Part shown: piece after piece, positions 10,468 to 61,592 of the stretch
Position numbering within the stretch: the first letter of the stretch is position 1
How the letters are laid out: each line of letters starts with the position of its first letter
Source of the DNA: Variovorax sp.
Lineage (GTDB): Bacteria; Pseudomonadota; Gammaproteobacteria; Burkholderiales; Burkholderiaceae_C
DNA length: 64,000 nt
Assembly: GCF_035634955.1 (NCBI RefSeq)
Contig: NZ_DASQBZ010000022.1
Coordinates: 100,730-164,729, forward strand
Direction: 5' to 3'
Made by a program: the position numbers and the translations under genes
The notes under the pieces: model-generated
The model's input: the letters and a program-made list of their open reading frames with translations, nothing else
Told to the model about the DNA's origin: nothing
Databases searched by the model: none

Positions 10468-10500
10468 GGCATGCGCGCTATGCCGATCGGCATAGCTCAC
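10468..10500. promoter_or_regulatory. Dyad element GGCAT-N7-ATGCCG overlapping a perfect 20-bp palindrome (10477-10496)
   Basis: GGCATGCGCGCTATGCCG at 10468-10485 and GCTATGCCGATCGGCATAGC at 10477-10496, in the gap upstream of the SBP-kinase 1-GT operon. Near-identical element at 60777-60794. Confidence 0.55.
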
Positions 10501-10538
10501 GGGGATGAGGGGCGCGCCGCACGTCCCCGGAATCCGGT

Positions 10539-14095: not shown

Positions 14096-14260
14096 AGGAG
14101 TGGCGCCTGAACCCCCATCCGAGGCGTGCGCGCACCGGCGAAGACTAGGACCTTCGCACTAGGGGCGCGCCGTCGGCTAGTCCATAGGACGGATTTGCCC
14201 CGCGCGGCAAGGGTCCGAAACTTCGCGTCTGCGGCACCCCTGCCGACGCATGGAGCGCGG

Positions 14261-26921: not shown

Positions 26922-26942
26922 CGCGCCGGAAGGGATTCGCCC

Positions 26943-28979
26943 ATGCACGCGCTGCTGCCACCGCCCCGCTGGATGCAGGCCCTGCTGCTGGGTGCGGCAC
27001 TGTTGCTGGCCGGCGGCCAGATACAGGCGGCACATGCGGCGCGGCGCGCGCTGCTGGTGGGCGTGTCGGAACTGGCCCACCAGAGCCCTTCGCTGTGGCT
27101 GCAGGCGCCGCGCAACGACGTGCTCCTGATGCGCGACGCGCTGCAGCGCCAGGGATTCGCGCCGGGCGAGATCGCCGTGCTGGCCGACGGCATCGACGGC
27201 GCCGCGCTGCCGGATTCGCGCGGCATCCACGACGCCCTGGCCGACCTGCTCGCCCGCTCGGGCAGCGGCGACTTCGTGCTGCTGTACTTCTCCGGCCACG
27301 GCACGCGCGTGCGCGACCGCGCCAAGGCGTACGCCGAGCCCGACGGCCTGGCCGAGAACTTCCTGGCGCGTGACGCGCTGCTGCCTCCCGGCGGGGGCGA
27401 CATGCCGCTGGCCGGCGGCCTGCGCGACGTCGACGTCGACGGCTGGATCCGCGCCTTCCTGGCGCGCGGCGTGTTCGTCTGGTCGGTGTTCGACACCTGC
27501 GCGGCCACCTCCATGACGCGCGGCGTGCGCGCCCTGCCGTCCGGCCCGGCAGACGCCGACATCGACGACGTCGACGACCCGGTGCGGTTTCGCGGCATCC
27601 GCCTCGACCAGCTGGCGCAGGCGCCGGCCGGCACGCCGCTGCCGGCCGACCTGGCGCCGCCGCCCTGGCCGCCGGTGCCGCGGGCGCGCTACGTCGCCTT
27701 CTTCGCGTCGGAAAGCCACCAGGTGACGCCCGAACTGCGCCTGCCGCGCGGCGATCGCAGCGCGCGACCGCAGGGACTGCTGACCTGGGCCGTCGCGCAG
27801 GCGATGGCGCGGCGGCCGGCCACCTTCCGCGAACTCTTCAACCAGGTGGTCTCGCTGCAGGCCCCGGTGATCGGCGAGCTGGCGCCGCGCTTTCCCACGC
27901 GCGAACTGCCGTCGCCGGTGGCCGAGGGCAACCTGGACCTGCCGCTGTACGGCGCCGCGCCGGCGCCGCTGACCACGCGGCCGGCCTGGCCGGCGCGGCG
28001 CGCGGGCGGCCAGCTGCTGCTGGCGGCGGGGTTGCTCGATGGCCTGGAGCCCGGCCAGCCGGTGCGGGTGCTGGCCACGCTGGAAGGCGGCGCGCAGCGC
28101 AGCGCCACGCTTGCGTTGACGGAGGTCGACCTCGGCACCGCGCAACTGCCGGTGCCGACCGCGCTGGCCGCGCTCGGCGACGACGCGCTGTGGAGCGTGG
28201 TGCCGTCGGCCGATTCGCCGTCCGCCCAGTTGCGGGTGGGTGGCGGCGTGGCGCTGCCGGCAGCGATCAGCCTGGCCTGGCCGGCCGCGCTCCGCGCCGC
28301 GAGCGCCGGCGAAGCGGCCGACGTGACGCTCGTGCGCACGGCCGACGGCGTGCAGGCCCGCATCGTCTCGCCCGACCTGGCCGCGCTGATCAACGAGCAG
28401 GCCGTGCCGCTGGCGGACCAGGACGCGTTGCGCACCTACCTGCAGGCGCTGGCAGAACTCAAGTGGCTCGGCCGCCTGCAGCGGCTCGCGCGGGGCCGGC
28501 AGCTCGACGGCTTCGATGCCACCGTCGAGGTCTGGTCCGGCAGCCGGCTGCTGCGCAGCGAGCCGGCCGAGGCCGGCAGCGGCGCGCCACTCGAAGCCGG
28601 CGAACGGCTGAGCCTGTCGGTGCGCAACGCCAGCGGCCAGTCGCTGGATCTGGTGGTGGTCGGCATCGATGCCGATGGCGCCATCCGGCAGGTGTATCCG
28701 CCGGCCATGAGCGAGACGAATCGCTTCGAGCGCGGCAGCCGCGAGCGGCCGGCCATGCAGCGCTTCGAGCTGCCGTGGCTGGACCCGGCGCGCGGCGGCC
28801 GCCTGCTGGTGGTGGCCGCGCCGGCCGCGCCTTTTTCCGCGCCGCGCCTGTTCGGCGCGGCCGCGCCGGATGCGACGCCGCCCGCCGGCATGCGGCTGCG
28901 CGGCACACGGCCGGCGGCGCCCGACGCGCGGCGCCAGCTGTACGGCGCGCTGGCCGCATGGCCCGCGGGCGCGCGATGA
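26943..28979 (+). CDS. Exported caspase-like peptidase (family C14, ortho/metacaspase type) with C-terminal DUF4384-like domain
   Basis: Signal peptide. 'ALLVGV..RNDV', catalytic His in 'YFSGHG' (27297-27299), catalytic Cys in 'FDTC' (27498-27500). C-terminal 'AGERLSLSVRN..DLVVVGIDADGAIRQVYP'. Confidence 0.88.
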   Translation: MHALLPPPRWMQALLLGAALLLAGGQIQAAHAARRALLVGVSELAHQSPSLWLQAPRNDVLLMRDALQRQGFAPGEIAVLADGIDGAALPDSRGIHDALADLLARSGSGDFVLLYFSGHGTRVRDRAKAYAEPDGLAENFLARDALLPPGGGDMPLAGGLRDVDVDGWIRAFLARGVFVWSVFDTCAATSMTRGVRALPSGPADADIDDVDDPVRFRGIRLDQLAQAPAGTPLPADLAPPPWPPVPRARYVAFFASESHQVTPELRLPRGDRSARPQGLLTWAVAQAMARRPATFRELFNQVVSLQAPVIGELAPRFPTRELPSPVAEGNLDLPLYGAAPAPLTTRPAWPARRAGGQLLLAAGLLDGLEPGQPVRVLATLEGGAQRSATLALTEVDLGTAQLPVPTALAALGDDALWSVVPSADSPSAQLRVGGGVALPAAISLAWPAALRAASAGEAADVTLVRTADGVQARIVSPDLAALINEQAVPLADQDALRTYLQALAELKWLGRLQRLARGRQLDGFDATVEVWSGSRLLRSEPAEAGSGAPLEAGERLSLSVRNASGQSLDLVVVGIDADGAIRQVYPPAMSETNRFERGSRERPAMQRFELPWLDPARGGRLLVVAAPAAPFSAPRLFGAAAPDATPPAGMRLRGTRPAAPDARRQLYGALAAWPAGAR

Positions 28980-29004
28980 ACGATCCCCACGCACGGAGCA
29001 CGCC

Positions 29005-29562
29005 ATGAACCTGAACGCGGATGCACAACTGGATGCGGGCGAGGTGCAACGCCTGCTCGACCACATGTCGCAGGAGACCGGCAACGACTACCTGATGCTG
29101 ATCGAGAGCAAGGGCAGCGCGGTCGAAGGCGAATCCAGCCGCGCCTTCGAGGACGGCAAGCGGCGCATGCAGATCGGCGGCTACAGCTACGTGGCCGCGG
29201 TGCAGACCCCGCCGGGCACCGCCAAGGGCCAGGTGCGCATGAGCGCCGTCATGGTCGTGCGCGAATGCGATGCGGCCACGGCCACCATCGCCAGTCTGCT
29301 GAAGAACCAGGAGAGCGACCTGAAGGTGCAGATCTCCGTGTTCAAGGCCAGCGGCGACAGCTCCAGCGACCAGCAGCCGATGCTGGAGTTCGTGCTGGAG
29401 AACGCGCGCATCACCACGCAGGCGATTCTCACCGGCGGCAATCCGCGCCGGCCTTGCGAGATCATCTGCCTGACGCCGCGCAAGCTGGAGATCCGCTCGG
29501 CGCCGCAGCAGCAGACGGGCCTGCGCGGTGCGGTGCGCACCTGCACGTTGACCCAGCCCTAG
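29005..29562 (+). CDS. Divergent Hcp-like protein with N-terminal extension
   Basis: 'YLMLIESKGSAVEGES', 'VMVVRECDAATATI', 'VFKASG..QPMLEFVLENARIT', 'EIICLTPRKLEIRSAPQ' follow the Hcp pattern. RBS GGAG upstream. Confidence 0.7.
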   Translation: MNLNADAQLDAGEVQRLLDHMSQETGNDYLMLIESKGSAVEGESSRAFEDGKRRMQIGGYSYVAAVQTPPGTAKGQVRMSAVMVVRECDAATATIASLLKNQESDLKVQISVFKASGDSSSDQQPMLEFVLENARITTQAILTGGNPRRPCEIICLTPRKLEIRSAPQQQTGLRGAVRTCTLTQP

Positions 29563-36848: not shown

Positions 36849-36866
36849 CCGCGCAGGAGCGTCGCC

Positions 36867-38246
36867 ATGGCTGCCGGATCCGAGTTCCACCCGCCCAACC
36901 TCGAGCCGTCTCCCGCGGCGCCGGTGCGCCTCGGGCTGCCCGAGGCCATGGGCCTGGCGCTCGGCCTGCACCAGGCCGGCCGGCTCGACGATGCGCAGGT
37001 CCTGTACCAGCGCGTGCTGGCGGCCGAGCCCGAGCATGCGGACGCGCTGCACTTCATGGGCGTGCTGACGCACCAGCGCGGCCGCAGCGACGAGGCGGCC
37101 ACGCTGATCCGCCGCTCCATCGCCCACCAGCCCGGCATCGCCGACTGGCACAACAACCTGGGCAACGTGCTGCTGGAGTCCGGCCGCGTCGACGAGGCGG
37201 GCGCGGCCTATGAAGAGGCGGCCCGCCTGGCGCCCGAACGCGCCGACGTGCACAACAACCTGGGCGTCCTGCGGCGCGAGCAGAAGCGCCCGGAGGAATC
37301 CGAGGCGGCCTACCGCCGCGCGATCGCGCTGGACCCGTCGTTCGTCGACGCCCACACCAACCTGGGCAACCTGCTGCACAGCCTGCACCGCAACGAGGCG
37401 GCGCTGATCAGCTATTGCGAGGCGCTGGCCCTGCGGCCGCAGAACGTGCGCGCGCGGCAGGCGCTGGGCATGGCGTACTACACGCTGGGCCGCTTCGAGG
37501 AAGCCACCCGCGTCTACGCCGACTGGCTGCGCGACGAGCCCGAAAGCCCGCAGGCGCGGCATCACCTGGCGGCATGCTCCGGCCGCGACGTGCCTGCGCG
37601 GGCCGCCGACGACTACGTGGCCGAAGTGTTCGACGGCTTTGCCGGCAGCTTCGACGCCAAGCTGGCGCACCTGCACTACCGCGCGCCGCAACTGCTGGAG
37701 CAGGAGGTGCGCCGGCGCCTGGGCCCGCCGCGCGCGGCCCTGGCGGTGCTCGACGCCGGCTGCGGCACCGGGTTGTGCGGCCCGCTCCTGCGGCCGTGGG
37801 CGCGCCGGCTGCAAGGGGTCGACCTGTCGGCCGGGATGCTTGCCAGGGCCGAGCCGCGCGGCGTGTACGACGGCCTGGAAAAGGCCGAGCTGACCGCCTG
37901 GATCGCCGCCGCCACCGCCGGCAGCTACGACCTGATCGTCTCGGCCGACACGCTGTGCTACTTCGGCGACCTGGCCGAGGTCTGCCGCGCCTGCGCCTCG
38001 GCCCTGACGCCCGGCGGCTGGCTGATGTTCACCGTCGAGGCGCTCGACGACGATGCCGCCGAGCCGGTGCGGCTCAATCCGCACGGGCGCTACGGCCACC
38101 GTGCCGACTACCTGCGCCAGGTGCTGGCGGGCGCCGGCCTGGGCGCAACCGAAGTGCAGGCGGCGCACCTGCGCACCGAGGGCGGACGGCCGGTGGCCGG
38201 CTGGCTGGTGTCGGCCTGCAAAGCCGGCGAGGCTGGATCGTCTTGA
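36867..38246 (+). CDS. TPR-repeat protein with C-terminal class I SAM-dependent methyltransferase
   Basis: TPRs ('WHNNLGNVL', 'HNNLGVL', 'HTNLGNLL'), 'YVAEVFDGFAGSFD', SAM motif 'VLDAGCGTGLCG'. Confidence 0.88.
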   Translation: MAAGSEFHPPNLEPSPAAPVRLGLPEAMGLALGLHQAGRLDDAQVLYQRVLAAEPEHADALHFMGVLTHQRGRSDEAATLIRRSIAHQPGIADWHNNLGNVLLESGRVDEAGAAYEEAARLAPERADVHNNLGVLRREQKRPEESEAAYRRAIALDPSFVDAHTNLGNLLHSLHRNEAALISYCEALALRPQNVRARQALGMAYYTLGRFEEATRVYADWLRDEPESPQARHHLAACSGRDVPARAADDYVAEVFDGFAGSFDAKLAHLHYRAPQLLEQEVRRRLGPPRAALAVLDAGCGTGLCGPLLRPWARRLQGVDLSAGMLARAEPRGVYDGLEKAELTAWIAAATAGSYDLIVSADTLCYFGDLAEVCRACASALTPGGWLMFTVEALDDDAAEPVRLNPHGRYGHRADYLRQVLAGAGLGATEVQAAHLRTEGGRPVAGWLVSACKAGEAGSS

Positions 38247-38291
38247 GCATGGATTCCAACTGACGCCGACGGGCAGGAGCAAGGCAGACGC

Positions 38292-40694
38292 ATGGCCGAC
38301 AAGCACTTCAGCATCCAGGGCGATTCGCCGGTCGTTGGCGACCTGATGTTCTGGTGCATCGTCGGCCAGGAGTCGTTGTCGCGGCCGGCGCACTACGAGC
38401 TGACCGTGCTGTCCGAGCGCGACGACATCGAGGCCAGGGACGTACTGGGCCACGCCTTCGACGTGGTGATCGGCTTCGCGGATGCCGACGACGCCCGGCA
38501 CGAGCGCCATTGCCAGGGCCACGCCGTGCGTTTCATGCGGCGCGGGCCCGCGGGGCGCTACTTCGAGTACCGCCTGACCCTGCGCAGCTGGTTCTGGCTG
38601 CTCGACAAGCGCATCAACTCGCGCATCCTGCAGGACAAGGCGGCAATGGACATCCTCGACGCGGTGGTGGACGGCAGCCCGGTCAAGCGCTTCAAGAAGG
38701 TCAAGGCCAGCCTGATCGGCAAGCATGAGCCGCGCCGCTACAGCGTTCAGCACCAGGAGAGCGACTACCGCTACCTGTCGCGCCTGCTGGAGGACGAGGG
38801 CATCTACTACTGGTTCGACGCGCACGACGCGCCGGGCACCATGAAGGTGGCCGACGACAGCGCGGTGGCGCACGAGAAGCTGCCCGTCGCCGACACGCTG
38901 GACTACATCCCGTTCGGCAGCACGGAGGCGCGCTTCGCCGAGATCTCGCGCTGGGTGGACTCGCACCGGCTGCATTCGGGCAGGTTCGCCTCGCGCGACA
39001 GCGACTTCAAGGCCATCAGGAAGACGCTCGACGGCGACAAGGACGACCCCGATTCGCACGAGCTGGCCGACCTGGAGGTGTTCGAATATCCCGGCGGCTA
39101 CTTTCGCAACGACGACACGGCGGACGCGGCGAAGGTCCGCATGGAGGAGCTGGCCGCGCGCCGCCACCTGAGCTGGGCCCTGACGCCCTGGCCGGACGTG
39201 GCGGTGGGCGGCACCTTCACCTTCCACGGCCACCCCATGGGCGACAAGGACGCCGACTTCCTGGTCGCCGGCTGCAGCTTCGTGCTGGTGCACGAGGGCT
39301 ACGAGGGCATGGGCGAGCACGACACGAACGTGCAGCGCCAGGGCCGGGTGCTGCTGGAGATGATGAAGGAAGACCCGCTCAACGCGGACTGGCAGGGGCA
39401 GCTGCGCGACATCGTCTACGGCACGCCCGACCTGGTCGCGCCGATGCGCGGCGTCGGCACCTTCCTGGTCACCGTGCTGCCGGCGCAGGCGCCCTTCCGG
39501 CCGCCGCGGGTGACGCCGCGCACAACCATGCCGGGGCCGCAGAGCGCGATCGTGGTCGGGCCGGCCGGCGAGGAGATCCATGCCGACGACTTCGGCCGCG
39601 TCAAGGTGCACTTCCACTGGGACCGCTACGACGAGCGCAACGAGAAGTCCACCTGCTGGGTGCGCGTGTCGCAGCCCTGGGCCGGCAAGGGCTGGGGCGG
39701 CTACTTCATCCCGCGCATCGGGCAGGAGGTGATCGTCGACTTTCTCAACGGCGACCCGGACCGGCCGGTCATCGTCGGGCGCGTCTACAACGACGACCAG
39801 CCCAAGCCGTTCGACAGCCACACGCAAAGCGGCTTTCGCACCCGCTCGACGCCCGGCGGCAGCGCGGCCAACTGCAACGAGTTGCGCTTCGACGACAAGA
39901 AGGGCAGCGAGCAGGTCTACCTGCACGCCGAGAAGAACCAGGACATCTCGGTGGAGAACGACGAGACGCACACAGTGGGGCACGACCGCGCCAAGACCAT
40001 CGACAACGACGAGACCACGCTCGTCAAGCACGACCGCACCGAGACGGTGGGCAACAACGAGACCATCACCGTGGGCGTGGACCGCACCGAAAGCGTGGGC
40101 AGCAACGAGACCATCTCCATCGGCGCGAACCGCACCGAGAGCGTGGGCAGCAACGAGACCATTTCCATCGGCGCCAACCGCAGCGAGAACGTGGCGGCCA
40201 ACGAGACCATCGGCATCGGCGCCAACCGCAGCATCACCGTGGGCGCCAGCGAGACGGCGACGGTGGCGCTGCAGCGCACCCACACGGTGGGCGTGAACGA
40301 GACCATCACGGTGGGCGCGGCGCAGGAGGTGACGGTGGGCGCCATGCAGGCCATCACCGTCGGCGCGAACCAGACCACCAGCGTGGGGATCAACCGCTCC
40401 GTGTCGGTCGGCTCGAACCTGTCGACCGACGTGGGCAGCGACGAGTCGCGCAGCGTCGGCGGCGGGCGCACCACGAGTGTCGGCAAGGACGACGAACTCA
40501 CGGTGGCGAAGAACCTGAAGATCAGCGCCGGCGACTCGATCTCCATCGTCACCGGCAGCGCCAGCATCACGATGAAGAAGGACGGGACCATCGTGATCAA
40601 GGGCAAGGACATCACGATCGACGGCTCCGGGAAGATCAACGCGAAGGCCGGCGGCGACATCGTGATGAAGGGATCGAAGATCCTGCAGAACTGA
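38292..40694 (+). CDS. vgrG: T6SS spike VgrG with long gp5-like C-terminal repeats
   Basis: 'QHQESDYRYLSRLLEDEGIYYWF', 'GPQSAIVVG..GRVKVHFHWDR', 'PRIGQEVIVDFLNGDPDRP', 'NELRFDDKKGSEQ', and 8/16-residue repeats. Confidence 0.96.
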   Translation: MADKHFSIQGDSPVVGDLMFWCIVGQESLSRPAHYELTVLSERDDIEARDVLGHAFDVVIGFADADDARHERHCQGHAVRFMRRGPAGRYFEYRLTLRSWFWLLDKRINSRILQDKAAMDILDAVVDGSPVKRFKKVKASLIGKHEPRRYSVQHQESDYRYLSRLLEDEGIYYWFDAHDAPGTMKVADDSAVAHEKLPVADTLDYIPFGSTEARFAEISRWVDSHRLHSGRFASRDSDFKAIRKTLDGDKDDPDSHELADLEVFEYPGGYFRNDDTADAAKVRMEELAARRHLSWALTPWPDVAVGGTFTFHGHPMGDKDADFLVAGCSFVLVHEGYEGMGEHDTNVQRQGRVLLEMMKEDPLNADWQGQLRDIVYGTPDLVAPMRGVGTFLVTVLPAQAPFRPPRVTPRTTMPGPQSAIVVGPAGEEIHADDFGRVKVHFHWDRYDERNEKSTCWVRVSQPWAGKGWGGYFIPRIGQEVIVDFLNGDPDRPVIVGRVYNDDQPKPFDSHTQSGFRTRSTPGGSAANCNELRFDDKKGSEQVYLHAEKNQDISVENDETHTVGHDRAKTIDNDETTLVKHDRTETVGNNETITVGVDRTESVGSNETISIGANRTESVGSNETISIGANRSENVAANETIGIGANRSITVGASETATVALQRTHTVGVNETITVGAAQEVTVGAMQAITVGANQTTSVGINRSVSVGSNLSTDVGSDESRSVGGGRTTSVGKDDELTVAKNLKISAGDSISIVTGSASITMKKDGTIVIKGKDITIDGSGKINAKAGGDIVMKGSKILQN
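40081..40176 (+). repeat. 48-bp tandem duplication inside the vgrG needle repeats
   Basis: 40081-40128 and 40129-40176 match at 45 of 48 bases; the differences are synonymous. Confidence 0.9.
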
Positions 40695-40710
40695 AGCGAA
40701 AGGGCGAGCG

Positions 40711-41193
40711 ATGAGTGGCAGAGACGCGTGTTTCGAACAGGGACTTGCGCACACGCCGGCGCCGATGCCGGCCCCGATGTGCATCGGCCGCCTGCTGGCG
40801 ATCGGCGACGAGGGGCGCACGCCGCTCGTGGTCTTCGAGGGACAGGCCGGCAGCGCCGCGCTGCCGGCGCGCAGCACCGTCGACCTGCGCGCCGAGCACG
40901 TCGGCGCGCAGGTGCTGCTGGCCTTCGCCGGCGAAGGCCGGTGCCCGGTGGTGACCGGCGTGCTGCGCGACAGCTTGCCGGCCTGGCCGGCGGCCGAGTT
41001 GCCGCCGGCGGTGAGCGTGGATGCGGACGGCCAGCGCCTGCTGGTCAGCGCCGGCGAGCAGCTGGTGCTGCGCTGCGGCAAGGCCAGCATCACGCTCACC
41101 CGCGCCGGCAAGGTGCTGATACAGGGCAGCTACGTGCTCAGCCGCTCGAGCGGGACGCACCGCATCAAGGGCGGCTCGGTCCAGATCAACTGA
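40711..41193 (+). CDS. DUF6484-like protein
   Basis: C-terminal 'LVLRCGKASITLTRAGKVLIQGSYVLSRSSGTHRIKGGSVQIN'. Position immediately after vgrG. Confidence 0.75.
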   Translation: MSGRDACFEQGLAHTPAPMPAPMCIGRLLAIGDEGRTPLVVFEGQAGSAALPARSTVDLRAEHVGAQVLLAFAGEGRCPVVTGVLRDSLPAWPAAELPPAVSVDADGQRLLVSAGEQLVLRCGKASITLTRAGKVLIQGSYVLSRSSGTHRIKGGSVQIN

Positions 41194-41223
41194 GCAGGCC
41201 GCCGGCGCAGGACCCGCATCGAC

Positions 41224-42360
41224 ATGGAAATCGTCAACGCAAGCGGCCACACCGTGGGCTACACGCAGGGCGTGGAGCCCAGCGGGCGCGAGTGGCTGGT
41301 GGTCGTGGCCAAGGGCACTTTCAGCCTGCCGGCGCCGGACGATCCGGCGGGTGCGCTCGCGCCGCGCCATCCGATGCAGGTGCCGCTGGTGACCGCCGAT
41401 ACCTTCACCGGCGAGCCCGGCTTCTCGGCGCCCCGGCTGGAGGTCGACTTCGCGCTGCGCAAGCCGCGCTGCGACATCCTGCTCAACGGCAGCGCCCATG
41501 CGCCCGATGGCGAGCCGGTCGAGCGGGTGCTGGTCGGCGCGCGCGTGACGGCCGGGGCGCAGTCTTGGCAGAAGTCCATGGCGGTCGTCGGGCCGCGGCA
41601 CTGGTCCAGCGGCCTGGGCGGCATACGCGCGAGTCCGCCGCAGTCCTTCGTGCGTCAGCCGATCTCCTACGACGTGGCCTTCGGCGGCCTGGACCAGCGC
41701 CATGAAGACCCGGCCGAGCATGCCGCGTACCGGCGCAATCCCGTCGGGCGCGGCTGGCACCGGCACCTGCAGGGGCGCTACGTGGACGGCGCGCCGCTGC
41801 CCCTGACCGAGCAGGTGGACGCGCCGGTGAGCGCGCCGGACGGCGACCACGTGCCGATGGCCTATGGCCCCGTCGGGCGCGGATGGTCGTCGCGCCTGCC
41901 CTACGCGGGCACGTACGACCAGGACTGGATCGACAACACGTTCCCTTTCCTGCCGGCCGACTTCCAGGACGCCTACTACCAGGCGGCGCCGATGGACCAG
42001 CAGATCGCGCACCCCATCGACGCGGCATCGCTCGAGGTCACGCTGGTACACCTGACCGGGCAGCCGCACGTGCGCTTCCGGCTGCCGTGCCAGGGGCTGC
42101 CGGTGTCGTTCTTCCGCCGCCGCGGCGGTCACGAGCAGGTGACGGCGGTGATGGACACGCTGGTCATCGATACCGATGCGCACTGGGCCACCGTCACCTG
42201 GCGTGCCGCGCTGCCCCTGCGCAAGAGCATGCTGGAGATCAGCAACGTGCTGGTGGGCACCATGTCCCAGGGCTGGTGGCGCGCCCGCGCGCTGGGCAAG
42301 ACCTGGCATCCGTCGCTGGGCGCGCTGGTGCGCAATCGCGGCGCGGAGGATGCGGCATGA
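41224..42360 (+). CDS. DUF2169 T6SS adaptor/chaperone
   Basis: 'WLVVVAKGTF', 'DFALRKPRCDILLNGSAHAP', 'YAGTYDQDW..PFLPADF..YYQAAP', 'MDTLVID'. Confidence 0.9.
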   Translation: MEIVNASGHTVGYTQGVEPSGREWLVVVAKGTFSLPAPDDPAGALAPRHPMQVPLVTADTFTGEPGFSAPRLEVDFALRKPRCDILLNGSAHAPDGEPVERVLVGARVTAGAQSWQKSMAVVGPRHWSSGLGGIRASPPQSFVRQPISYDVAFGGLDQRHEDPAEHAAYRRNPVGRGWHRHLQGRYVDGAPLPLTEQVDAPVSAPDGDHVPMAYGPVGRGWSSRLPYAGTYDQDWIDNTFPFLPADFQDAYYQAAPMDQQIAHPIDAASLEVTLVHLTGQPHVRFRLPCQGLPVSFFRRRGGHEQVTAVMDTLVIDTDAHWATVTWRAALPLRKSMLEISNVLVGTMSQGWWRARALGKTWHPSLGALVRNRGAEDAA

Positions 42361-43412
42361 ATGCGCTGGCCGTGCAGCGTGTCGGCCTGGTCACGGGCGT
42401 GGGCCTCGACGCCGCGTCCACCTGCGCAGCCATTCGCGGGGCGATCGACAATTTCCAGGAGACGCGCTTTCGCGACCACGGCGGCGAATGGCTCATGGGC
42501 TGCGAGGTGCCGTGGCCGGGCAAGCCGCTGCGTGGCGAGCAGCGACTGCTGGCCATGGCCGCACGCGCGGCGCGCGAATGCCTGGACGGCTGGCAATGCG
42601 CCGATTGCGCCGCCGTGCCGCTCCTGCTGTGCCTGGCCGAAGGCGGGCGCCCGGGGCGCGCGGTGCGCGACGACGGCGCCTTCCTGCTGGCGCTCGAGCA
42701 GGCGCTCGGGTGCCGCTTTCATCCCAGCTCGTCGATCATCGCCGGCGGGCGGGTGTCGGCCGCCGTGGCGCTGCTGCACGCGCGCCGCTGGCTGGCCGAA
42801 GGCGTGGCCGAGCGGGTGCTGGTGGTGGCGGTGGATTCGCTGCTGGCGGCCGCCACGCTGGCCGACGCCGAGGCGCGCGACCGGCTCCTGTCGAGCGAGA
42901 ACTCCGACGGGTTCATCGCCGGCGAGGCGGCCGCGGCGCTGCTGCTGGCGCCGCTCGACGCCGACGCCGACGCCGACGCCGGCCAGCTGGCCTGCCACGG
43001 GCTGGGCTTCGCGGTCGAGCCGGCGCACATCGACTCGGGCCAGCCGCTGCGGGCCGACGGCCTGACCCGCGCCATCAAGGACGCGCTGCAAGACGCGGGC
43101 TGGGGCGAAAGCGTGTTGCAGTTCAAGATCGTCGATGCCTCGGGTGGGCAGTACCCCTTCAAGGAGTCGGCGCTGGCGTTCTCGCGCATCGACCGGACCA
43201 AGCGCACCGAGTTCGACATCTGGCATCCGGCCGACTGCATCGGCGAGGTGGGCGCGCCGATCGGGCTGGTGATGCTGGCCGTGCTCAAGGCCGCATGCGA
43301 GAAGGCCTATTCGCGCGGCCAGCGGATGCTGGCCCACCTGGGCAACGACGACGGTCGGCGCGCCGCGATGGTGCTGGCCTGGCACCCGGCGCGCGCCGGG
43401 CAGGGCGGTTGA
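42357..43412 (+). CDS. Thiolase/ketoacyl-synthase-like T6SS accessory protein (PRK06147-like)
   Basis: ATGA overlap with DUF2169. 'GLVTGVGLDAASTCAAIR', 'GFIAGEAAAALL', 'HPADCIGEVGA'. Typical DUF2169-thiolase-DUF4150 context. Confidence 0.8.
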   Translation: MNALAVQRVGLVTGVGLDAASTCAAIRGAIDNFQETRFRDHGGEWLMGCEVPWPGKPLRGEQRLLAMAARAARECLDGWQCADCAAVPLLLCLAEGGRPGRAVRDDGAFLLALEQALGCRFHPSSSIIAGGRVSAAVALLHARRWLAEGVAERVLVVAVDSLLAAATLADAEARDRLLSSENSDGFIAGEAAAALLLAPLDADADADAGQLACHGLGFAVEPAHIDSGQPLRADGLTRAIKDALQDAGWGESVLQFKIVDASGGQYPFKESALAFSRIDRTKRTEFDIWHPADCIGEVGAPIGLVMLAVLKAACEKAYSRGQRMLAHLGNDDGRRAAMVLAWHPARAGQGG

Positions 43413-43413
43413 G

Positions 43414-44547
43414 ATGGCCAACCAGGTGTTCGCCAACGGCCGCGAACTCGCCTGCAAGGCCGGCGCGGGAAAGACCATCTGCGCCCTGCCCGACGTGTGC
43501 ATGACGCCGCCCGAGAACCCCGCCACCCCGCCCGGCGTGCCGGTGCCCTATCCCAACACCGGCCTGGCCTCGGACACTACCGACGGCAGCCGCTCGGTGC
43601 AGATCTCGGGCAAGGAGGTCATGCTCAAGAACAAGTCGTACTTCAAGACGTCGAGCGGGGACGAGGCCGGCTGCGCGGCCAAGAAGGGCGTCGTCTCGAG
43701 CAAGAACAAGGGCAAGGTCTATTTCATCGACTGGTCGATGGACGTGAAGCTCGAGGGCGAGAACGCGGTGCGCCATCTCGACAAGACCACCAACAACCAC
43801 GGCAGCCCCACGGCCAACGAGGCGGTGCCCTGGCCATTCGTCGACTCGATGGACGACGCCGAGATCAAGGCGTTGTGCGACAAGGACAAGGCGCAGGAGA
43901 AGGCCGCGTGCGCGGACTACAAGCCGCACAAGGCGGATGGCAAGGACGTGTGCGCCCAGACCGGCCTGGATGGCGACTTCGCCTCCATCAAGGGCGACCT
44001 GCCCGGCGCAGCCAAGAAGGCCAGCGAGAACCCTTGCCTGGCGGCGCGGCGCTGCCGGCTGGTGCCCTACAAGGCGTCGCCCGAGGTGGCCGACGGAATC
44101 GGCGGCTGCTGCCCCGCGCAGACGGGCGACCACATCGTGCCCAAGAGTTCGTTCTTCAAGGACAAGTTCGGCGGCACGCCCATCGGCGGCTGGACCTACA
44201 GCATGAACAAGGCCCCGTGCATGTGTACCGAGGGCGGCAGCTGCTCGGGCACGCACGGCCTGCGGCACACGCACCACAAGACCACGTCGGCGGTGGCCCA
44301 CGGCAAGCCGGTGCCGTTCGAGACCGAGGTCAAGCATTGCGCCAAGGGTGCCAAGGCGGTGGCGCCCCAATGCAACGAGGAGTGCCTGGCGGCGCAGCTG
44401 CGCGAGGGGCACAAGGACATGGGCGATCCGGCCACGGACATCAAGCACTCGTCCACCGGCAAGCCCGACATCACGCACTACGACTCGCTCAAGCAGACGA
44501 TCGACCAGACCGCCGGCAAGCTGGGCCACCCACTTCCATTTCCCTGA
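43414..44547 (+). CDS. T6SS effector: DUF4150 PAAR-like domain fused to a Tox-GHH2-like HNH/EndoVII nuclease
   Basis: N-terminal 'VFANG..PDVCMTPP..GVPVPYPNT..MDVKLEGENAVR..TTNN'. C-terminal 'CLAARRCRLVPY..GCCPAQTGDHIVP..APCMCTEG..HG..H'. Confidence 0.8.
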   Translation: MANQVFANGRELACKAGAGKTICALPDVCMTPPENPATPPGVPVPYPNTGLASDTTDGSRSVQISGKEVMLKNKSYFKTSSGDEAGCAAKKGVVSSKNKGKVYFIDWSMDVKLEGENAVRHLDKTTNNHGSPTANEAVPWPFVDSMDDAEIKALCDKDKAQEKAACADYKPHKADGKDVCAQTGLDGDFASIKGDLPGAAKKASENPCLAARRCRLVPYKASPEVADGIGGCCPAQTGDHIVPKSSFFKDKFGGTPIGGWTYSMNKAPCMCTEGGSCSGTHGLRHTHHKTTSAVAHGKPVPFETEVKHCAKGAKAVAPQCNEECLAAQLREGHKDMGDPATDIKHSSTGKPDITHYDSLKQTIDQTAGKLGHPLPFP

Positions 44548-56511: not shown

Positions 56512-57558
56512 CTACTGCGCCTGGGCCGACTGCCTGCCCGTGACGGTCTCGATGGTGTCGATCGCGCCCGGTGCCAGGTCGGCCATGATCTCCATGAAGC
56601 TCACGCCGATGAGCTTCTTGGCGCGCATGATCAGCAGCGGCGCCGGATTTCCCGGCTCGGTCTGCTGCAGGTAGTGGATGACGCGGTCGAGCACCTGCAG
56701 CGCCTCCTGGCGGCTGCGGATCTCGGTGCGTTCGCCGGAAGCGCCGTCGACGCGGTCGCCGCCGTCGTCGATGGCGCCACTCGCCGAGGCGTGGCCACCT
56801 GCCGGCGAGGTGCCTGCACCCGCCTCGAGCGGGGCGCAGGCCTTGGCGAGCATGTTGCAGATGCCGCGCAGCGGCGCCAGGTCGATCGCGTCGCCTCGAC
56901 CGGTGTGCCGCGACAGCAGCGCCTGCAGTCCGTCGACCTGCGCCGCGAGTGCGGCCAGCGTGCGGATGCGCTCGGGCGCCTGCGCATGGATGCTGGCGAG
57001 CGCGCCGTCGATCTGCGCCGGCGATGGCGCGGCCTCGCCAGCCGGCGCGGCGAGCTGGCCGTGCGCAATGGCCACATCGCGCACGCGCAGCGCACCGGTG
57101 CCACGCGCCACGCCGATCTGCGCGTCGTACAGGTCGCGCAGCACCGTGCGTTCGTCGGCGAGCGGTGCCAGCGCGTTCAGCCGCATGGTGGGGTCGTTGC
57201 CGTCGTCCGCATCGAGTTGCGGATGCAGCGTGTCCCAGTAGCGTTCGAGCAGCCCGCCGAGCAGTGACAGGCACTGCGAGAAGCCTTCGATGCCTTGCAG
57301 GCGCGTGCTGGCGCGCAGCAGCAGCATGGCCACGCGCGCATCCTTGCTGCGTGCCAGCAGTGACTGCGCCTGCTCCTGCACGAGTCGCCAGTCGGGCTCG
57401 ACCGCGGCAATGACGGTGTCGCCGAACTGCTGCTCCGGCTTGCCCTGGGACGCCGAATCCAGCGCGATGTAGGCGCTGTCGTATTCGAGGTTGTCGCCCG
57501 TCGGCGAGTCCTCGCTGATGGGCGCCTGCAGTTCAGCTACACGTTCGGGTGTCAGCAT
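56512..57558 (-). CDS. tssA: T6SS TssA (ImpA-N domain)
   Basis: 'PISEDSPTGDNLEYD', 'PDWRLV..LLARSKDARV', 'RYWDTLHPQLD', C-terminal 'IRSRQEAL..EPGNPAPLLI'. Confidence 0.93.
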   Translation of the reverse strand: MLTPERVAELQAPISEDSPTGDNLEYDSAYIALDSASQGKPEQQFGDTVIAAVEPDWRLVQEQAQSLLARSKDARVAMLLLRASTRLQGIEGFSQCLSLLGGLLERYWDTLHPQLDADDGNDPTMRLNALAPLADERTVLRDLYDAQIGVARGTGALRVRDVAIAHGQLAAPAGEAAPSPAQIDGALASIHAQAPERIRTLAALAAQVDGLQALLSRHTGRGDAIDLAPLRGICNMLAKACAPLEAGAGTSPAGGHASASGAIDDGGDRVDGASGERTEIRSRQEALQVLDRVIHYLQQTEPGNPAPLLIMRAKKLIGVSFMEIMADLAPGAIDTIETVTGRQSAQAQ

Positions 57559-57630: not shown

Positions 57631-58179
57631 ATGCACGCCAACCGAACCGGCCTTTTGCCCTATGCGCATCGCGCGCGACTCGCTGCGCAGGCGCCCGGGG
57701 GCCGCATCGCGACGCTGTCGCGCCGGCCGCTTCTCGTGGCCGGCGCACTGGCGGTGCTGGCGGTGCTGGCGGGCTGCGCTTCTGCGCCCAAGCCGGTGGT
57801 GACCGCGGTCACGCTCGACATCACGGCCGCGGCCGACCTCAACCCCGACGCGCGCGGCCGTGCCTCTCCGCTGACGGTGCGCGTGTACGCGCTCAAGACG
57901 CCGGGCGTGTTCCAGTCGGCCGACTTCTTCTCGCTCTACGACAAGGACAGCGCCACGCTCGGCGCCGAACTGGTCAAGCGCGAGGAATTCCAGCTCGCGC
58001 CGGGCGAGAAGAAGACGCTGCAAATGACGCTGGAGCCCGATGCCAGGAGCCTGGGCGTGATGGCGGCCTACCGCGACCTGGAGCGCGCCCGCTGGCGCGA
58101 CCTGCAGCCGTTGCAGGTCGGCCAGGGGAACAGCTTCAAGTTGAACCTCGGCGCGCGGCAGGCAAGCCTGTCCAGATAG
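57631..58179 (+). CDS. tssJ: T6SS lipoprotein TssJ
   Basis: Lipobox 'VLAGC', 'DLNPDARGRASPLTVRVYAL', 'FQSADFFSL', 'GVMAAYRDL..WR'. True start may lie further downstream. Confidence 0.92.
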   Translation: MHANRTGLLPYAHRARLAAQAPGGRIATLSRRPLLVAGALAVLAVLAGCASAPKPVVTAVTLDITAAADLNPDARGRASPLTVRVYALKTPGVFQSADFFSLYDKDSATLGAELVKREEFQLAPGEKKTLQMTLEPDARSLGVMAAYRDLERARWRDLQPLQVGQGNSFKLNLGARQASLSR

Positions 58180-58203: not shown

Positions 58204-59304
58204 TCAGCGGCGAAGGCGCGCGAAGGCGCGTTCGGCCGGCAGGAATCGCCCGAACAGGTCGTCGACGAAGGCGGCGCGCGGTGCCTGCGCGTCGTTGCCC
58301 GGCGCCGCCACGAAGTAGAGCCCGCGTCCGCGCAGCCGATAGGGCGCGCCGCCCGGGGCGAACAGGCGCTTGAGCAGCAGGCTCAGGCCGGCCTGCAGCG
58401 CCAGCCACTGGTCGAAGAAGCGGTGCACGGCCAGTTGATGGCCGGCATCGGCGTGGTCGCGCACGAGCCCCATGCGCAGCGCGCGCAGCCGATTGCCCAG
58501 ATCGTCCAGCGCGTCGTCGATCACCAGCAGCGCGCCCGGCGGCACGCGGATTCCCACGGCTTGCGCCGGCATCGGCTCGGGAAGCAGTTCGCGTACCGGC
58601 GCGTAGCCGGGCAGGCGGTCCAGCCCGGTGACCAGCACCTGTGTGGGCAGGCGCAGGCGCAGATGCTGCGAGGCCTCGTCGGCGCGCCGGCGCAGGCGCG
58701 CCGCCAGGTCGGCCGCGGCATCCGGCGTGCGCAGTATCTGCTGCGCATCGACGCACAGCACGATGCCGTCCAGCGGCAGCGCGCTGCGCCGCTGCGCCAG
58801 CAGCAGCAAGGCCGCGTACCAGCGCGCCAGCGCCGACCGCGCCTGCGCCGAGTCTTCCTGCGCGCTTGGCAGTTCGACGAGCAGGGGATCGAGCTCGATG
58901 GCCACGAGCTGCGGCAGCAGGTGCCAGCGCCAGAAGGTGCGTGGCAGCCTGCCGTGCGAGGGGGCGGCCGGCGCGGCGGCATGCATCAGGTCGCCGACGC
59001 GGCTGTCGGACTCTCCGAGGAACAGCACCCACGGCCGGTGATAGAGCGCCATGCGGCCCGCACCCGGCTGCGCCGCCTGCAGCGCGGCGCATGCCTGGTC
59101 GAACGTGTCGCGCAGCGCCTGCGTCGCAGGCGCGTCTGCGGCGGCATCCTGCACCCGCGCCAGTGCCCCGCGCAGCGAGCGCAGCCGGCGCCACCGCCGG
59201 GCGCCGCGCACGGACCACCACAGCAGCGCCAGGCCGGCGCAGCAGGCCAGCGCCAGCTTCCACAGCCAGGCGGTCTCGAGGGCGGCCTGCAGCGCCGGGT
59301 TCAT
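58204..59304 (-). CDS. Stand-alone truncated TssM-like protein (TM plus cytoplasmic IcmF N-domain only)
   Basis: 'LYHRPWVLFLG', 'FWRWHLLPQLVAIE', 'RSALPLDGIVLCV', 'LRLPTQVLVTGLDRLPGY', 'RGRGLYF' parallel TssM motifs. Ends at 366 aa. Confidence 0.7.
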   Translation of the reverse strand: MNPALQAALETAWLWKLALACCAGLALLWWSVRGARRWRRLRSLRGALARVQDAAADAPATQALRDTFDQACAALQAAQPGAGRMALYHRPWVLFLGESDSRVGDLMHAAAPAAPSHGRLPRTFWRWHLLPQLVAIELDPLLVELPSAQEDSAQARSALARWYAALLLLAQRRSALPLDGIVLCVDAQQILRTPDAAADLAARLRRRADEASQHLRLRLPTQVLVTGLDRLPGYAPVRELLPEPMPAQAVGIRVPPGALLVIDDALDDLGNRLRALRMGLVRDHADAGHQLAVHRFFDQWLALQAGLSLLLKRLFAPGGAPYRLRGRGLYFVAAPGNDAQAPRAAFVDDLFGRFLPAERAFARLRR

Positions 59305-59323
59305 GGCGGGGCCCCGGCGGCAG

Positions 59324-60646
59324 TCACTGGCGCTCCACGGTGTCGAGCTCGATGATGTCGGCTGCCAGCCGGTCGTCACCGCGCTGGGCGGCCAGCATCT
59401 CGCGCAGGCGCTGGAGGTAGGCCGAGGCCAGCTCGAACGGCGGCCGGTCCTCCGTCCCCGCGATGGGCGAGGGCGAAGCCAGTACCGTGACCATCACCGT
59501 GCCGAACGGCGGACTGACGAGCCAGCTGGCCGGGATGTCCTGCCCCAGGTCGAGCTGCTGCCCGGCGGCGAGGGCCTGGCGCGGCCGGCCGGCCAGCAGG
59601 TGGAGCACCGAACCGTCGGCGGTGTAGTAGTCCACCCAGAAGTTGCCGTCGAACGCAGCCTGGCGCACGCGCAGGACGACCGGATCGCCCTCGCGCAGCC
59701 GGCCATCGCGGGCGGAAGGGGCGCTGATGCGCAAGCCGTAGCCCTTGGCCTGGTTGCGGGCCTGGTAGGGCTTGAGGATGGCGTGCACTTCGCAATGCGG
59801 CCACGGACGCAGGCCCAGGTCGAAGCGCGCCGCGCTGACGCCGGGCACGTCCTGTACTTCGCGCCGCACGGCCTGCATGTCCTGCGGGCGGGAGACGAAG
59901 CCGCCGACCCGCACGAGGCCGCCTTCGGCCTGCACGTTCAGGTCGGCGCACGGCAGGTGCTGCAGTTGCGCGTCGACGCGCTGGGCCAGCGAGGGGCGCG
60001 CCTCGCCGTGGCCGGCCAGCAGCAGCCAGCCCAGCGCCAGCACGGGCATGAGCAACGCGAGCAGTGCGCCGCTGGTGAGCACGCGGCGTTCACGCAGCAG
60101 CGCCTGGCCCGGGCGCGCCGGATCGGGCACCTCGTAAGGTTGCGGCGTCAGGCGCGCGTCGTCGTGCGGCGCCAGCGGGGGCGTGCGCAACTGGCGCCCG
60201 TGCAGCGCCTTGAGCTTGCCCAGCTCCCCCCGGTCGCCGTCCTCGAAGTAGTACTGGCCGGCAAAGCCCAGCGCCAGGGCGGTCCAGTAGACCTCGCGCA
60301 GCTCGTCGTCCTGCGGCTGCAGGCCCGACAGGTGATGGAAGAACTCGGTGCGCGCGTTGCCGGAGTTGAACAGGCGCTGCTGCACGGGCGTGTCGGCGCC
60401 CGGAACGTCGTGCCCGGCCGCGCGCGACAGGATCTCGTCGACCCAGGCCGCCATCGCGAAGCTGGCCGACTCGATCGCCGGGCCGGGATAGCCGGCGGCG
60501 GCCGCTGCCGCCCGCGCCTGATCGAGCAGGACGAAGGCGCGCTCGCGCTGCGCCGCATTCGCTGGCGGGTCGGCGCGCGCCGGCTGGCCCGCGAGCATGA
60601 GGCCATGCTCGATCAATGGAGAAAAGAAGTCGAGCAGGCGAGTCAT
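59324..60646 (-). CDS. Second TssL/DotU-family protein with BON-like and DUF4384-like C-terminal domains
   Basis: DotU motifs 'FAMAAWVDEIL', 'QQRLFNSGNARTEFF', 'REVYWTALALGFAGQY'. TM, then 'VRVGGFV', 'RPWPHCEV', 'LREGDPVVLRV..VDYYTADGSVLHL..VSPPFGTVMVTVLAS'. Confidence 0.8.
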   Translation of the reverse strand: MTRLLDFFSPLIEHGLMLAGQPARADPPANAAQRERAFVLLDQARAAAAAAGYPGPAIESASFAMAAWVDEILSRAAGHDVPGADTPVQQRLFNSGNARTEFFHHLSGLQPQDDELREVYWTALALGFAGQYYFEDGDRGELGKLKALHGRQLRTPPLAPHDDARLTPQPYEVPDPARPGQALLRERRVLTSGALLALLMPVLALGWLLLAGHGEARPSLAQRVDAQLQHLPCADLNVQAEGGLVRVGGFVSRPQDMQAVRREVQDVPGVSAARFDLGLRPWPHCEVHAILKPYQARNQAKGYGLRISAPSARDGRLREGDPVVLRVRQAAFDGNFWVDYYTADGSVLHLLAGRPRQALAAGQQLDLGQDIPASWLVSPPFGTVMVTVLASPSPIAGTEDRPPFELASAYLQRLREMLAAQRGDDRLAADIIELDTVERQ

Positions 60647-60774
60647 GGCGTCTCGCCGCCTTTTCGGGCCGCGGTGGCTGTGGCCGTGCGCCGGCAACTC
60701 TGGCAGACGCTCATCGTCCCACCGCGTTTTGTGAAGTGAAGCGAATTCTTCCCAGCGCTCCCGCGCCGCACCAT

Positions 60775-60795
60775 ACGGCATGTGAGCTATGCCGT
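60775..60795. promoter_or_regulatory. Dyad ACGGCAT-N7-ATGCCGT between divergent tssL2 and response regulator genes
   Basis: Perfect 7-bp arms. The core 60777-60794 matches 10468-10485 at 16 of 18 bases. Confidence 0.55.
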
Positions 60796-60884
60796 TAGAA
60801 AGGCGCGACGCCTTGCTGAGTAATGCTTTCGACGCTATCGTCGGCGTCTTAGAAACATAACGGCCACATTCCCTGGGAAATGTC

Positions 60885-61592
60885 ATGAAGATCCTGATCG
60901 CCGACGACCATCGGCTCGTCACCGAGGCGGTCAAGTCCAAGCTGTCCGAGATCGAGGACGGCATCGAGTTCCTGATCGCGCTGAGCGTGGACGAACTGCT
61001 GGGCATGGCCTCCGACGACGTCGACCTCGCCGTGGTCGACCTCAACATGCCGGGGGCGGACGGTTATTCCCACATCGACGAATTGCGCCGGCGACACCCC
61101 AGCGTGCCGGTGATCGTGCTCTCGGGCCACGAGGACCCGCAACTTATGCGAGCGGCGCTCGAGCGCGGCGCGCTGGGCTTCATTCCCAAGGCCTACTCGC
61201 CCGAGGTGATGCTCTCGGCGGTGCGGCTGGTGCTTGCCGGCGGCGTCTACGTGCCGCCGATGATGCTGTCGGCAGTGCCGAGCGGCGTGATCGCCGCCAG
61301 CGGCGCGGAAGCGGCGCCCGGCATGGCCGGCGGCCTGGCGCCACGGCCGGCGGGCAGCGGCGCCGCCACGCTCGACAGCCTGCGCAAGGTGCTCACCGAG
61401 CGCCAGGTCGAGGTGCTGCAGCTGTTGTCCCAGGGCAAGCCCAACAAGCTGATCGGCCGCAGCCTGGGCATCAGCGAGGGGACGGTCAAGATCCACCTGG
61501 CGGCGATCTTCCGGGCGCTGAACGTGCGCAACCGCACCGAGGCGGTGGTCGCGGCGCAGAGCCTCAACGAAGCCTCCACGTCGTCCAGCTGA
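60885..61592 (+). CDS. NarL/LuxR-family response regulator
   Basis: REC 'ILIADDHRLV..VVDLNMP..FIPK' and HTH 'LTERQVEVLQLLSQGKPNKLIGRSLGISEGTVKIHL'. Confidence 0.95.
   Translation: MKILIADDHRLVTEAVKSKLSEIEDGIEFLIALSVDELLGMASDDVDLAVVDLNMPGADGYSHIDELRRRHPSVPVIVLSGHEDPQLMRAALERGALGFIPKAYSPEVMLSAVRLVLAGGVYVPPMMLSAVPSGVIAASGAEAAPGMAGGLAPRPAGSGAATLDSLRKVLTERQVEVLQLLSQGKPNKLIGRSLGISEGTVKIHLAAIFRALNVRNRTEAVVAAQSLNEASTSSS

Follow-up and report, generated by a model that had tools for sequence, protein, structure and literature searches.

Protein pairs of the TssL/TssM type are known outside type VI secretion systems (T6SS). In the Legionella Dot/Icm system, DotU (IcmH) and IcmF form an accessory or stabilising membrane module, a precedent for the exaptation of such a pair; the full-length IcmF of that module has both Walker A and a periplasmic domain, and the module is tied to a type IVB system and not to a two-component system. 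TagL and other accessory anchors of the T6SS sit in the inner membrane and supply the TssL/TssM complex with a periplasmic domain that binds the envelope; TagL itself is not homologous to DotU, binds peptidoglycan via an OmpA-like domain and has no pseudo-GTPase partner. In Agrobacterium tumefaciens, the cytoplasmic portions of TssL and TssM constitute a regulatory unit recruiting Fha and Hcp (PMC3346141, PMC3953482). We analyzed a second pair of this type, a TssL-like gene (TssL') followed by a short TssM-like gene (the stub), located at positions 58204-60646 of a 64,000-nucleotide stretch of a Variovorax sp. (contig NZ_DASQBZ010000022.1, positions 100,730 to 164,729), hereafter the window. 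On balance, we regard this pair as probably the surviving core of a second, distinct T6SS membrane complex, maintained by selection as a regulator-controlled membrane adaptor, the activity of which is predicted.

The pair was compared with canonical TssL/TssM as represented by A. tumefaciens and by enteroaggregative Escherichia coli (EAEC) Sci-1. It shares with them the DotU fold and single transmembrane (TM) helix, a G-domain-like TssM fold and the tssL-tssM gene order, and its orthologues are the only TssL and TssM detected in a real T6SS cluster. It differs from them on three points: the stub has one TM helix and not three, and lacks the IcmF-related and IcmF_C periplasmic regions, Walker A and Walker B; TssL' carries BON-like and DUF4384 domains and not an OmpA-type peptidoglycan-binding domain; and a complete TssJ/K/L/M set is already present in the same window. 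As to the A. tumefaciens switch, made of the TssM ATPase, phospho-TssL and Fha, the window likewise encodes PpkA, PppA, Fha and TagF, whereas the stub has no nucleotide motifs, TssL' has no N-terminal extension, and the divergent T6SS lineage described below has no PpkA, PppA or Fha within 10 kb. A literature search found no paper on the pair, on PF14331, on DUF4384 in connection with type VI secretion or on the sheath structure 9n4v, and the titles and abstract openings of the Variovorax T6SS papers retrieved contain nothing on the pair. NCBI already labels the two proteins "DotU family" and "IcmF/TssM N-terminal domain-containing".

Architecture and conservation of the pair

TssL' is assigned by Pfam to DotU (PF09850, E 9.4e-24, 84.6 bits for a cut-off of 27). 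Its score against NCBIfam TIGR03349 (62.9 bits) is under the cut-off of 89.95, hence TssL' is a divergent DotU/TssL member. The protein begins directly at the DotU core (~1-152), without N-terminal extension, and continues with a TM helix (193-211), a BON-like unit of alpha-beta-beta-alpha-beta type, predicted to be periplasmic (220-279), a helix, a DUF4384/Ig-like beta-sandwich (306-391) and an alpha/beta tail. Pfam found no match to an OmpA-type C-terminal domain in TssL', the region being occupied by BON-like and DUF4384 instead. Both of these score under the Pfam cut-off of 27 bits in the window protein (BON, PF04972, 17.9 bits; DUF4384, PF14326, 21.1 bits); DUF4384 is significant in orthologues (40.7 bits in locus L041), and PF14326 is precomputed in many relatives. 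An AlphaFold2 (AF2) model of TssL' (pLDDT 75) shows a helical N-domain, the BON-like unit, the beta-sandwich and the alpha/beta tail. Using Foldseek, the model was matched to TssL cytoplasmic domains (6y4r, 3u66, 4v3i, 4acl; TMt 0.68-0.80) and to Ig-like sandwiches and folds, and its BON-like unit to OsmY, DolP and BonA (prob 0.97-1.0, low TM-scores) as well as to ring-building motifs of the type III secretion system. Conservation of the periplasmic domain is very strong, two Cys (C233 and C285) being invariant in the alignment, and full-length orthologues are found at 37-71% identity. A canonical OmpA-type TssL is encoded in the same window, within a TssK-TssL-TssM set at 14126-20528, so that the pair is truly a second one. 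An earlier note, made from the window sequence alone, had described it in these terms, with BON-like and DUF4384-like domains replacing OmpA; orthologues (for DUF4384) and model (for the BON-like fold) agree with this description.

The ATG of the stub (59304) lies 19 nt past the TssL' stop, and an alternative GTG start is present at 59379. Its domain content is IcmF-related_N alone (PF14331, 96.3 bits for a cut-off of 25), and it scores 99 bits against TIGR03348, the equivalog of full-length TssM, for a cut-off of 388. TM prediction gave a single helix at residues 14-32, followed by a strongly basic stretch. The protein ends ~10 residues beyond the FLPxE/DxxxA motif that precedes TM3 in TssM, and is thereby devoid of the three-TM architecture, of the periplasmic IcmF-related region (PF06761) and of the C-terminal TssJ-binding IcmF_C (PF06744). 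The observation of the earlier note that the gene stops after the cytoplasmic domain, with a replaced Walker A (GESDSRVGD versus GAPGAGKTT in the canonical TssM), is thus confirmed, and Walker B/G3 is lost as well (AIELDP versus IDTAGR). The AF2 model (pLDDT 89.4, pTM 0.88) has as nearest folds in Foldseek the G domains of G-alpha, EngB, FeoB and Sar1/Arf; the cytoplasmic domain is for this reason considered a pseudo-GTPase, predicted to be unable to bind or hydrolyse nucleotide via the canonical motifs. To our knowledge, Walker motifs are not universal in TssM. With neither a periplasmic part nor a P-loop in the stub, the pair cannot build a channel alone, as had been proposed. In terms of family membership, TssL' has the domains of its family, and the stub lacks the full architecture, the Walker motifs and the TssJ-binding end of TssM.

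Relatives of TssL' number more than 270, nearly all from named Variovorax, with 54-71% identity over the full length. Those of the stub are full-length as well (347-392 aa, 38-71% identity) and are intact open reading frames (ORF) in many species. Across Variovorax-type loci, stubs have diverged to 37% identity yet keep a constant length. About 29 of these loci share the same order, a LuxR regulator divergent from TssL-like gene and stub, and in 18 of them the pair abuts tssJ-tssA-tssBC-hcp. Two possible lesions were observed in Variovorax: in Variovorax sp. KK3 the stub ORF (L084:9962-11668) runs ~200 codons past the usual stop, antisense to tssJ, and in V. ureilyticus P51 the TssL-like match (L089:8415-9738) is split in two.

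The ratio of nonsynonymous to synonymous substitution rates (dN/dS) was estimated on 16 pairs by the Nei-Gojobori method, a simple counting method applied here to very GC-rich genes. It ranges from 0.11 to 0.41 for the stub and from 0.13 to 0.36 for TssL', at dS up to >1, compared to 0.15-0.29 for TssA, 0.10-0.26 for TssJ and 0.03-0.13 for TssB/C. Values for the pair are unchanged in Variovorax loci without nearby T6SS genes. Both genes of the pair are under purifying selection. A strain-specific pseudogene, which the earlier note had named as the finding that would overturn its proposal, is ruled out by the intact ORFs, by the conserved synteny and by these ratios (~0.3); conservation is in fact genus-wide.

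A divergent T6SS lineage with full-length TssM'

A profile of the stub family was searched against 1.84 billion representative proteins. The best matches were short stubs, DotU-IcmF_N fusions (513-600 aa) and proteins of ~1080-1195 aa, all without GK[ST]; canonical Walker-A TssMs rank further down the list. Walker A and Walker B are both lost in 144 of the 189 top relatives, including 36 long proteins. The idea that the P-loop decayed as a result of truncation was rejected, since full-length relatives have no such motifs either. In the long proteins Pfam sees IcmF_N only, the periplasmic part being invisible to it; hhalign against a single TssM aligned the N-terminal domain only, and a sequence search of the PDB was empty. 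Profile-profile alignment of the long proteins with canonical TssM (hhalign) extends over 956 columns (Prob 100, E 1e-80), which establishes them as divergent full TssMs (TssM') and rules out that they are something else.

The 56 loci fetched for these long proteins (L013-L068; e.g. L041:5494-19016 and L059:5892-23432) define what we call lineage X. They belong to Thermomonas, Luteimonas, Lysobacter, Rhodanobacter, Dyella, Pseudoxanthomonas, Stenotrophomonas nitritireducens, Hydrocarboniphaga, Pigmentiphaga and Corticibacter. Their gene order is a divergent regulator, then TraB/GumN-tssK'-tssL'-tssM'-tssA-tssB-tssC-hcp-(tssE), then a hybrid kinase and often a PhnD-like binding protein, with tssF and clpV upstream. 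The TssL' of lineage X aligns with that of the window over its full length (37-47% identity) and carries DUF4384. No second TssL or TssM was detected in the 56 loci; as the sole TssL and TssM detected there, TssL' and the Walker-less TssM' are the normal subunits of a distinct T6SS lineage. A tblastn search with the window proteins, covering 10 kb on either side, found no TssJ, PpkA, PppA, Fha or TagF near these clusters. Compared with solved sheaths, lineage-X TssC is closest to 9n4v ("DUF877 family protein"; 649 bits, against 522 to 5n8n), and the window TssC to 5n8n (P. aeruginosa-type; 856 bits, against 501 to 9n4v). A review of Xanthomonadales T6SS sorts the clusters into 1, 3 and 4 and, in the parts consulted, does not describe lineage X. 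In Thermomonas sp. S9 and T. fusca (L060 and L065, near 11690), the TssM' frame has a possible lesion, an interruption at about codon 610.

The window thus has in common with lineage X the TssL' with DUF4384, the Walker-less TssM', the regulator, the kinase, the binding protein and a promoter motif; it differs from it in that TssM' is there ~1080-1195 aa long and part of a cluster with tssK', tssA, tssBC, hcp, tssE and tssF. Walker loss and the BON/DUF4384 domains are ancestral to lineage X and did not arise in the window pair, contrary to the earlier note, which had taken both for changes of the pair itself. Identity between the window and lineage X is 52-67% for the regulator, 45-60% for the kinase and 46-58% for the binding protein, and only 42-51% for TssB/C; within Variovorax, TssC (86-96%) is the slowest-evolving of the set, against 74-86% for the regulator. 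The sharing of regulator, kinase, binding protein, TssL' and N-terminal TssM', together with distant TssB/C, indicates that the Variovorax locus is a chimera: to judge from the sequences, an i3-type machine is bracketed by a lineage-X regulatory module and reduced membrane subunits. In Variovorax, tssM' has been cut back to TM2 and the cytoplasmic pseudo-GTPase domain, and tssK' has been lost.

Since TssL' is complete, with TM helix and periplasmic domain, and serves as TssL in lineage X, it could be proposed that it replaces or supplements the canonical TssL under other conditions, with the stub as a stabilising chaperone; TssM and TssL stabilise each other in A. tumefaciens (PMC3953482). We consider this very unlikely. 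TssL' is only distantly related to canonical TssL, TssK' and the periplasmic part of TssM' are gone, and neither the persistence of the pair without nearby T6SS genes nor the fusions devoid of a periplasmic domain, both described below, would be explained.

Reduced loci and their regulatory module

A locus was called T6SS-free when no T6SS structural gene is present within 10 kb of the pair, and all statements below on absent T6SS genes have this scope. In Dyella humicola, D. soli and Dyella sp. 20L07, DotU, a TM helix, a short loop, a second TM helix and IcmF_N form one protein of 567-608 aa without periplasmic domain. A fusion protein of this type is also encoded by Dyella sp. C9, so that four or more Dyella species have it. 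Gene fusion thus links the two cytoplasmic domains physically there. At the three former loci the fusion gene is flanked by the hybrid kinase and, on its opposite side, by the regulator with the binding protein; the surroundings (tol-pal, queC/E, glnS) contain no T6SS gene, and dN/dS of the fusion gene is 0.18-0.34 at dS >1. In Rhodanobacter terrae, the same slot contains two truncated genes, one coding for DotU, TM helix and short tail, the other for TM1, TM2 and a cytoplasmic domain ending just before TM3; the periplasmic domain is lost and the locus is T6SS-free. That this locus (L069) contains a single fusion was ruled out from the reading frames. In a neighbour-joining (NJ) tree of IcmF_N, which has evident long-branch effects, the R. 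terrae sequence nests in the clade of full-length Rhodanobacteraceae TssM' with 100% bootstrap, so that its truncation is an independent event. The Dyella fusions group weakly (27%) with Variovorax, the outgroup falling among the long branches; we treat this grouping as long-branch attraction and not as a sign of where the fusion came from. The three truncations of the ~1190-aa protein end within ~20 residues of the same domain boundary, which is the pattern expected if only correctly bounded domains are kept.

Ten Variovorax loci are T6SS-free. They are distributed as follows: four keep the regulator and the pair only, among housekeeping genes (between trpE/HAD and rlmL/rpoN in L070, which is annotated); in six, PppA is retained besides the regulator and the pair. 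A PpkA match and TagF are additionally present in five of these six, as are both binding proteins where the locus reaches; in L073, the annotated one, an EF-G-like gene follows the pair and PpkA is kinase-only. The lack of association with a T6SS, which the earlier note had given as a second ground for abandoning its proposal, is therefore partly borne out: no T6SS structural gene lies within 10 kb in the ten Variovorax, three Dyella and R. terrae loci, and in 18 others the pair abuts a T6SS.

These distributions bear on the function proposed by the earlier note, in which the pair would be a sensor or decoy within the membrane complex of the H1/i3-type system next to it, its DUF4384 domain communicating with PpkA or with the caspase-like protease. 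Such a role would agree with the 18 adjacent loci, with the six loci devoid of structural genes where PppA (and in five cases PpkA and TagF) stays near the pair, with the DUF4384 domain of the window PpkA (Pfam, E 2e-12), and with the strongly conserved periplasmic domain and its two invariant Cys. The DUF4384 region of TssL' nevertheless has no detectable similarity to that of PpkA or to the caspase protein, and kinship with either was rejected on these pairwise comparisons. BON/DUF4384 is found in lineage X, where PpkA, PppA, Fha and TagF are absent from the vicinity of the clusters; the forms from Dyella and R. terrae are still conserved despite the loss of the periplasmic domain; four Variovorax loci have only the regulator beside the pair; and TssL' lacks an N-terminal extension of the kind which carries the phospho-Thr in A. 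tumefaciens TssL (PMC3953482). Finding no specific support for it, we hold this role to be unlikely.

The constant partner of the pair is not the T6SS, it is the regulator, usually with the hybrid kinase and the binding protein. The LuxR/NarL-type regulator is the most constant neighbour, adjacent and divergent in every locus reaching that far (52-86% identity). Orthologues of the kinase (45-60%) flank both the lineage-X clusters and the reduced Dyella and R. terrae loci. Orthologues of the binding protein, the start of which was set at the signal-peptide-like MQRLRR, have 44-58% identity and lie beside the regulator in Dyella, Rhodanobacter and Luteimonas, and beside the kinase in Pigmentiphaga. 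The window contains two paralogous hybrid histidine kinases in 7225-12446, with stretches of ~79% identical DNA (7822-7896 with 11157-11231, and 8228-8325 with 11557-11654); of the two, the second alone is represented by orthologues in the conserved module.

The 238-bp intergenic region between pair and regulator (60647-60884) contains the motif AACGGCATAGCTCACATGCCGTATGG at 60771-60796, which holds a perfect dyad, ACGGCAT-N7-ATGCCGT (60775-60795), and a -10-like AAGAAT ~21 nt downstream of it (60745-60750). When 13 intergenic regions of Variovorax are aligned, the dyad is seen to be surrounded by conserved blocks. In all lineages, [CAT]TAG-N9-12-[AG]TATGG is found upstream of the regulator gene (68 of 81 loci), followed after ~21 nt by GAAAGAAT. 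This motif has only 83 matches in all fetched DNA, both strands included, for a background of 0.007 per 300 nt, and the full promoter motif is unique within the window. The exact dyad GGCAT-N7-ATGCC is absent from the other loci, the conserved element being the looser TAG-N9-12-TATGG motif. The shared dyad which the earlier note had placed in the promoter region may correspond to this real, conserved, dyad-like motif, the exact dyad being proper to the window. Its half-site CGGCATAGC recurs in a perfect 20-bp palindrome, GCTATGCCGATCGGCATAGC, located in the gap that separates the stop codon of the kinase from the start of 9333-10376, a minus-strand gene of the ABC-type substrate-binding kind, and the 13-mer CGGCATAGCTCAC is present exactly twice in the window, at 10488-10500 (+) and 60782-60794 (-). 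The regulator may bind both the promoter motif and the palindrome. As the same motif heads the whole tssK'-to-hcp operon in lineage X, the pair has inherited this putative promoter.

Proposed role, genomic context and implications

Selection has kept the pair genus-wide together with a signalling system, and we conclude that it is probably a regulatory part and not a channel. In the mechanism we propose, the binding protein and the hybrid kinase would feed the LuxR-type regulator, which would act on the conserved motif of the divergent promoter and drive both genes of the pair. TssL' and the stub would form an inner-membrane heterocomplex through their DotU and pseudo-GTPase domains; the TssL-TssM cytoplasmic cross-talk established in A. 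tumefaciens (PMC3346141, PMC3953482) is taken as support for this step. Having neither channel nor nucleotide switch, the complex would act as a regulated adaptor: it would either dock or titrate T6SS parts of the cytoplasm (TssK, TssG, TssE, Fha), or serve the two-component system as an accessory. An envelope contact would be added in Variovorax by the periplasmic BON/DUF4384 domain. A more radical version is that the cytoplasmic TssL-TssM(N) unit is a T6SS-independent membrane DotU/pseudo-GTPase signalling adaptor, working with binding protein, kinase and regulator, and carved from a T6SS at least three times (Variovorax, R. terrae, Dyella); we put this forward as a tentative possibility.

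Several observations weigh against a maintained, regulated adaptor. Among the cluster genes, dN/dS is highest for the stub, which also lies on long branches; its constraint is thus relaxed relative to full-length TssM'. The truncation in R. terrae seems recent and might be plain decay. The constant adjacency of the regulator indicates co-regulation at most, and not a signalling role of the pair. The T6SS-free loci, judged within 10 kb, would suit docking of T6SS parts in trans as well as a T6SS-independent role. The promoter/operator block is a putative one, assigned from its conservation. Finally, the sequencing runs which hold the 58204-60900 sequence are all of metagenomic DNA, with no RNA run among them. 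The fast evolution of the stub and the apparently recent R. terrae deletion would also suit a neutral relic, i.e. undecayed leftovers of a deleted T6SS doing nothing, as would the clear derivation of the pair from a larger cluster by deletion and the split or read-through genes of two Variovorax strains. This explanation has little to recommend it in view of the intact ORFs of constant length in ~29 Variovorax-type loci, where stubs are down to 37% identity, of dN/dS of 0.1-0.4 at dS up to >1, of the in-frame fusion in Dyella, of the common boundary at which the three reductions end and of a stub fold predicted with high confidence; we rate it as highly improbable.

The pair is found at the right-hand end of a complete T6SS cluster of the H1/i3 type. 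Coordinates are collected in Table 1.

Table 1. Features of the window discussed in the text
Feature	Coordinates	Strand	Remarks
hybrid histidine kinase (HAMP-HisKA-HATPase-REC)	10539-12446	-	Pfam; other end of the T6SS cluster
perfect 20-bp palindrome	10478-10497	.	same half-site as the promoter motif of the pair
periplasmic PhnD-like (Phosphonate-bd) binding protein	12642-13706	+	Pfam; divergent from kinase
tssK	14126-15589		canonical set
tssL	15586-16908		canonical set; OmpA-type C-terminus
tssM	16905-20528		canonical set; Walker A GAPGAGKTT
tssA	56512-57558		opposite strand to the tssK-L-M side, together with hcp, tssC and tssB
tssJ	~57631-58179		divergent from tssA
TssM' N-terminal stub	58204-59304	-	366 aa from ATG; intact ORF
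TssL-like gene (TssL')	59324-60646	-	440 aa; intact ORF
putative promoter/operator block	60745-60796	-	in the divergent intergenic region
LuxR/NarL-type response regulator (REC + GerE)	60885-61592	+	Pfam; divergent from the pair

Other genes of the cluster are tagF, ppkA (with C-terminal DUF4384), an MltA-like gene, a caspase-like gene, tagJ, tssF, clpV, vgrG, a PAAR-like/GHH2 toxin gene, fha and pppA. The canonical TssL has a ~45-residue N-terminal extension before its DotU core (15586-15720; MTAPDPFSGEAERTVIKPRP...), which we take to resemble the region with phospho-Thr14 in A. tumefaciens TssL. Inside the cluster, at 26922-29559, a caspase-like (Peptidase_C14) protein of ~685 aa is followed by an ORF with a weak Hcp-like domain, the region being flanked by two ORFs without Pfam match and by tagJ. 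A TPR-repeat protein fused to a class I methyltransferase domain is encoded between clpV and vgrG (36849-38243). The effector module that follows (38247-44544) comprises VgrG, DUF6484, DUF2169, an unmatched ORF and a PAAR-like protein with a GHH2 (HNH/EndoVII) nuclease toxin domain; the gp5-type repeats of VgrG appear as eight copies spaced by 48 nt at 39985-40416. The left edge of the window (1-6431) carries a two-partner secretion system, with the end of a ShlB/FhaC-type transporter and a TpsA-type exoprotein of ~1790 aa which has a TPS domain and an MBG domain. The G+C content of the window is ~72%, compared to 67-69% in the Variovorax loci checked. Its nearest named relative is Variovorax dokdonensis (TssC 96%, pair 66-73%), and the exact 58204-60900 sequence is present in soil and mosquito metagenome assemblies (runs X1-X13).

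Membrane-complex proteins of the T6SS are treated as purely structural. The loci described here point to a natural series, from a full machine to a channel-less pair and to a single-chain cytoplasmic fusion, all under selection, with the same two-component system and a shared promoter motif. In this series the cytoplasmic interface of TssL and TssM stands out as a unit of its own value. Were this unit to titrate baseplate or Fha components, it would represent a novel type of T6SS brake or timer; were it to function with no T6SS at all, it would be a case of a secretion-system part reused for signalling. Lineage X itself is poorly described, and its Walker-less TssM bears on the purpose of the TssM NTPase domain. 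For structural work on the TssL-TssM cytoplasmic contact, the Dyella fusion is a ready-made construct.

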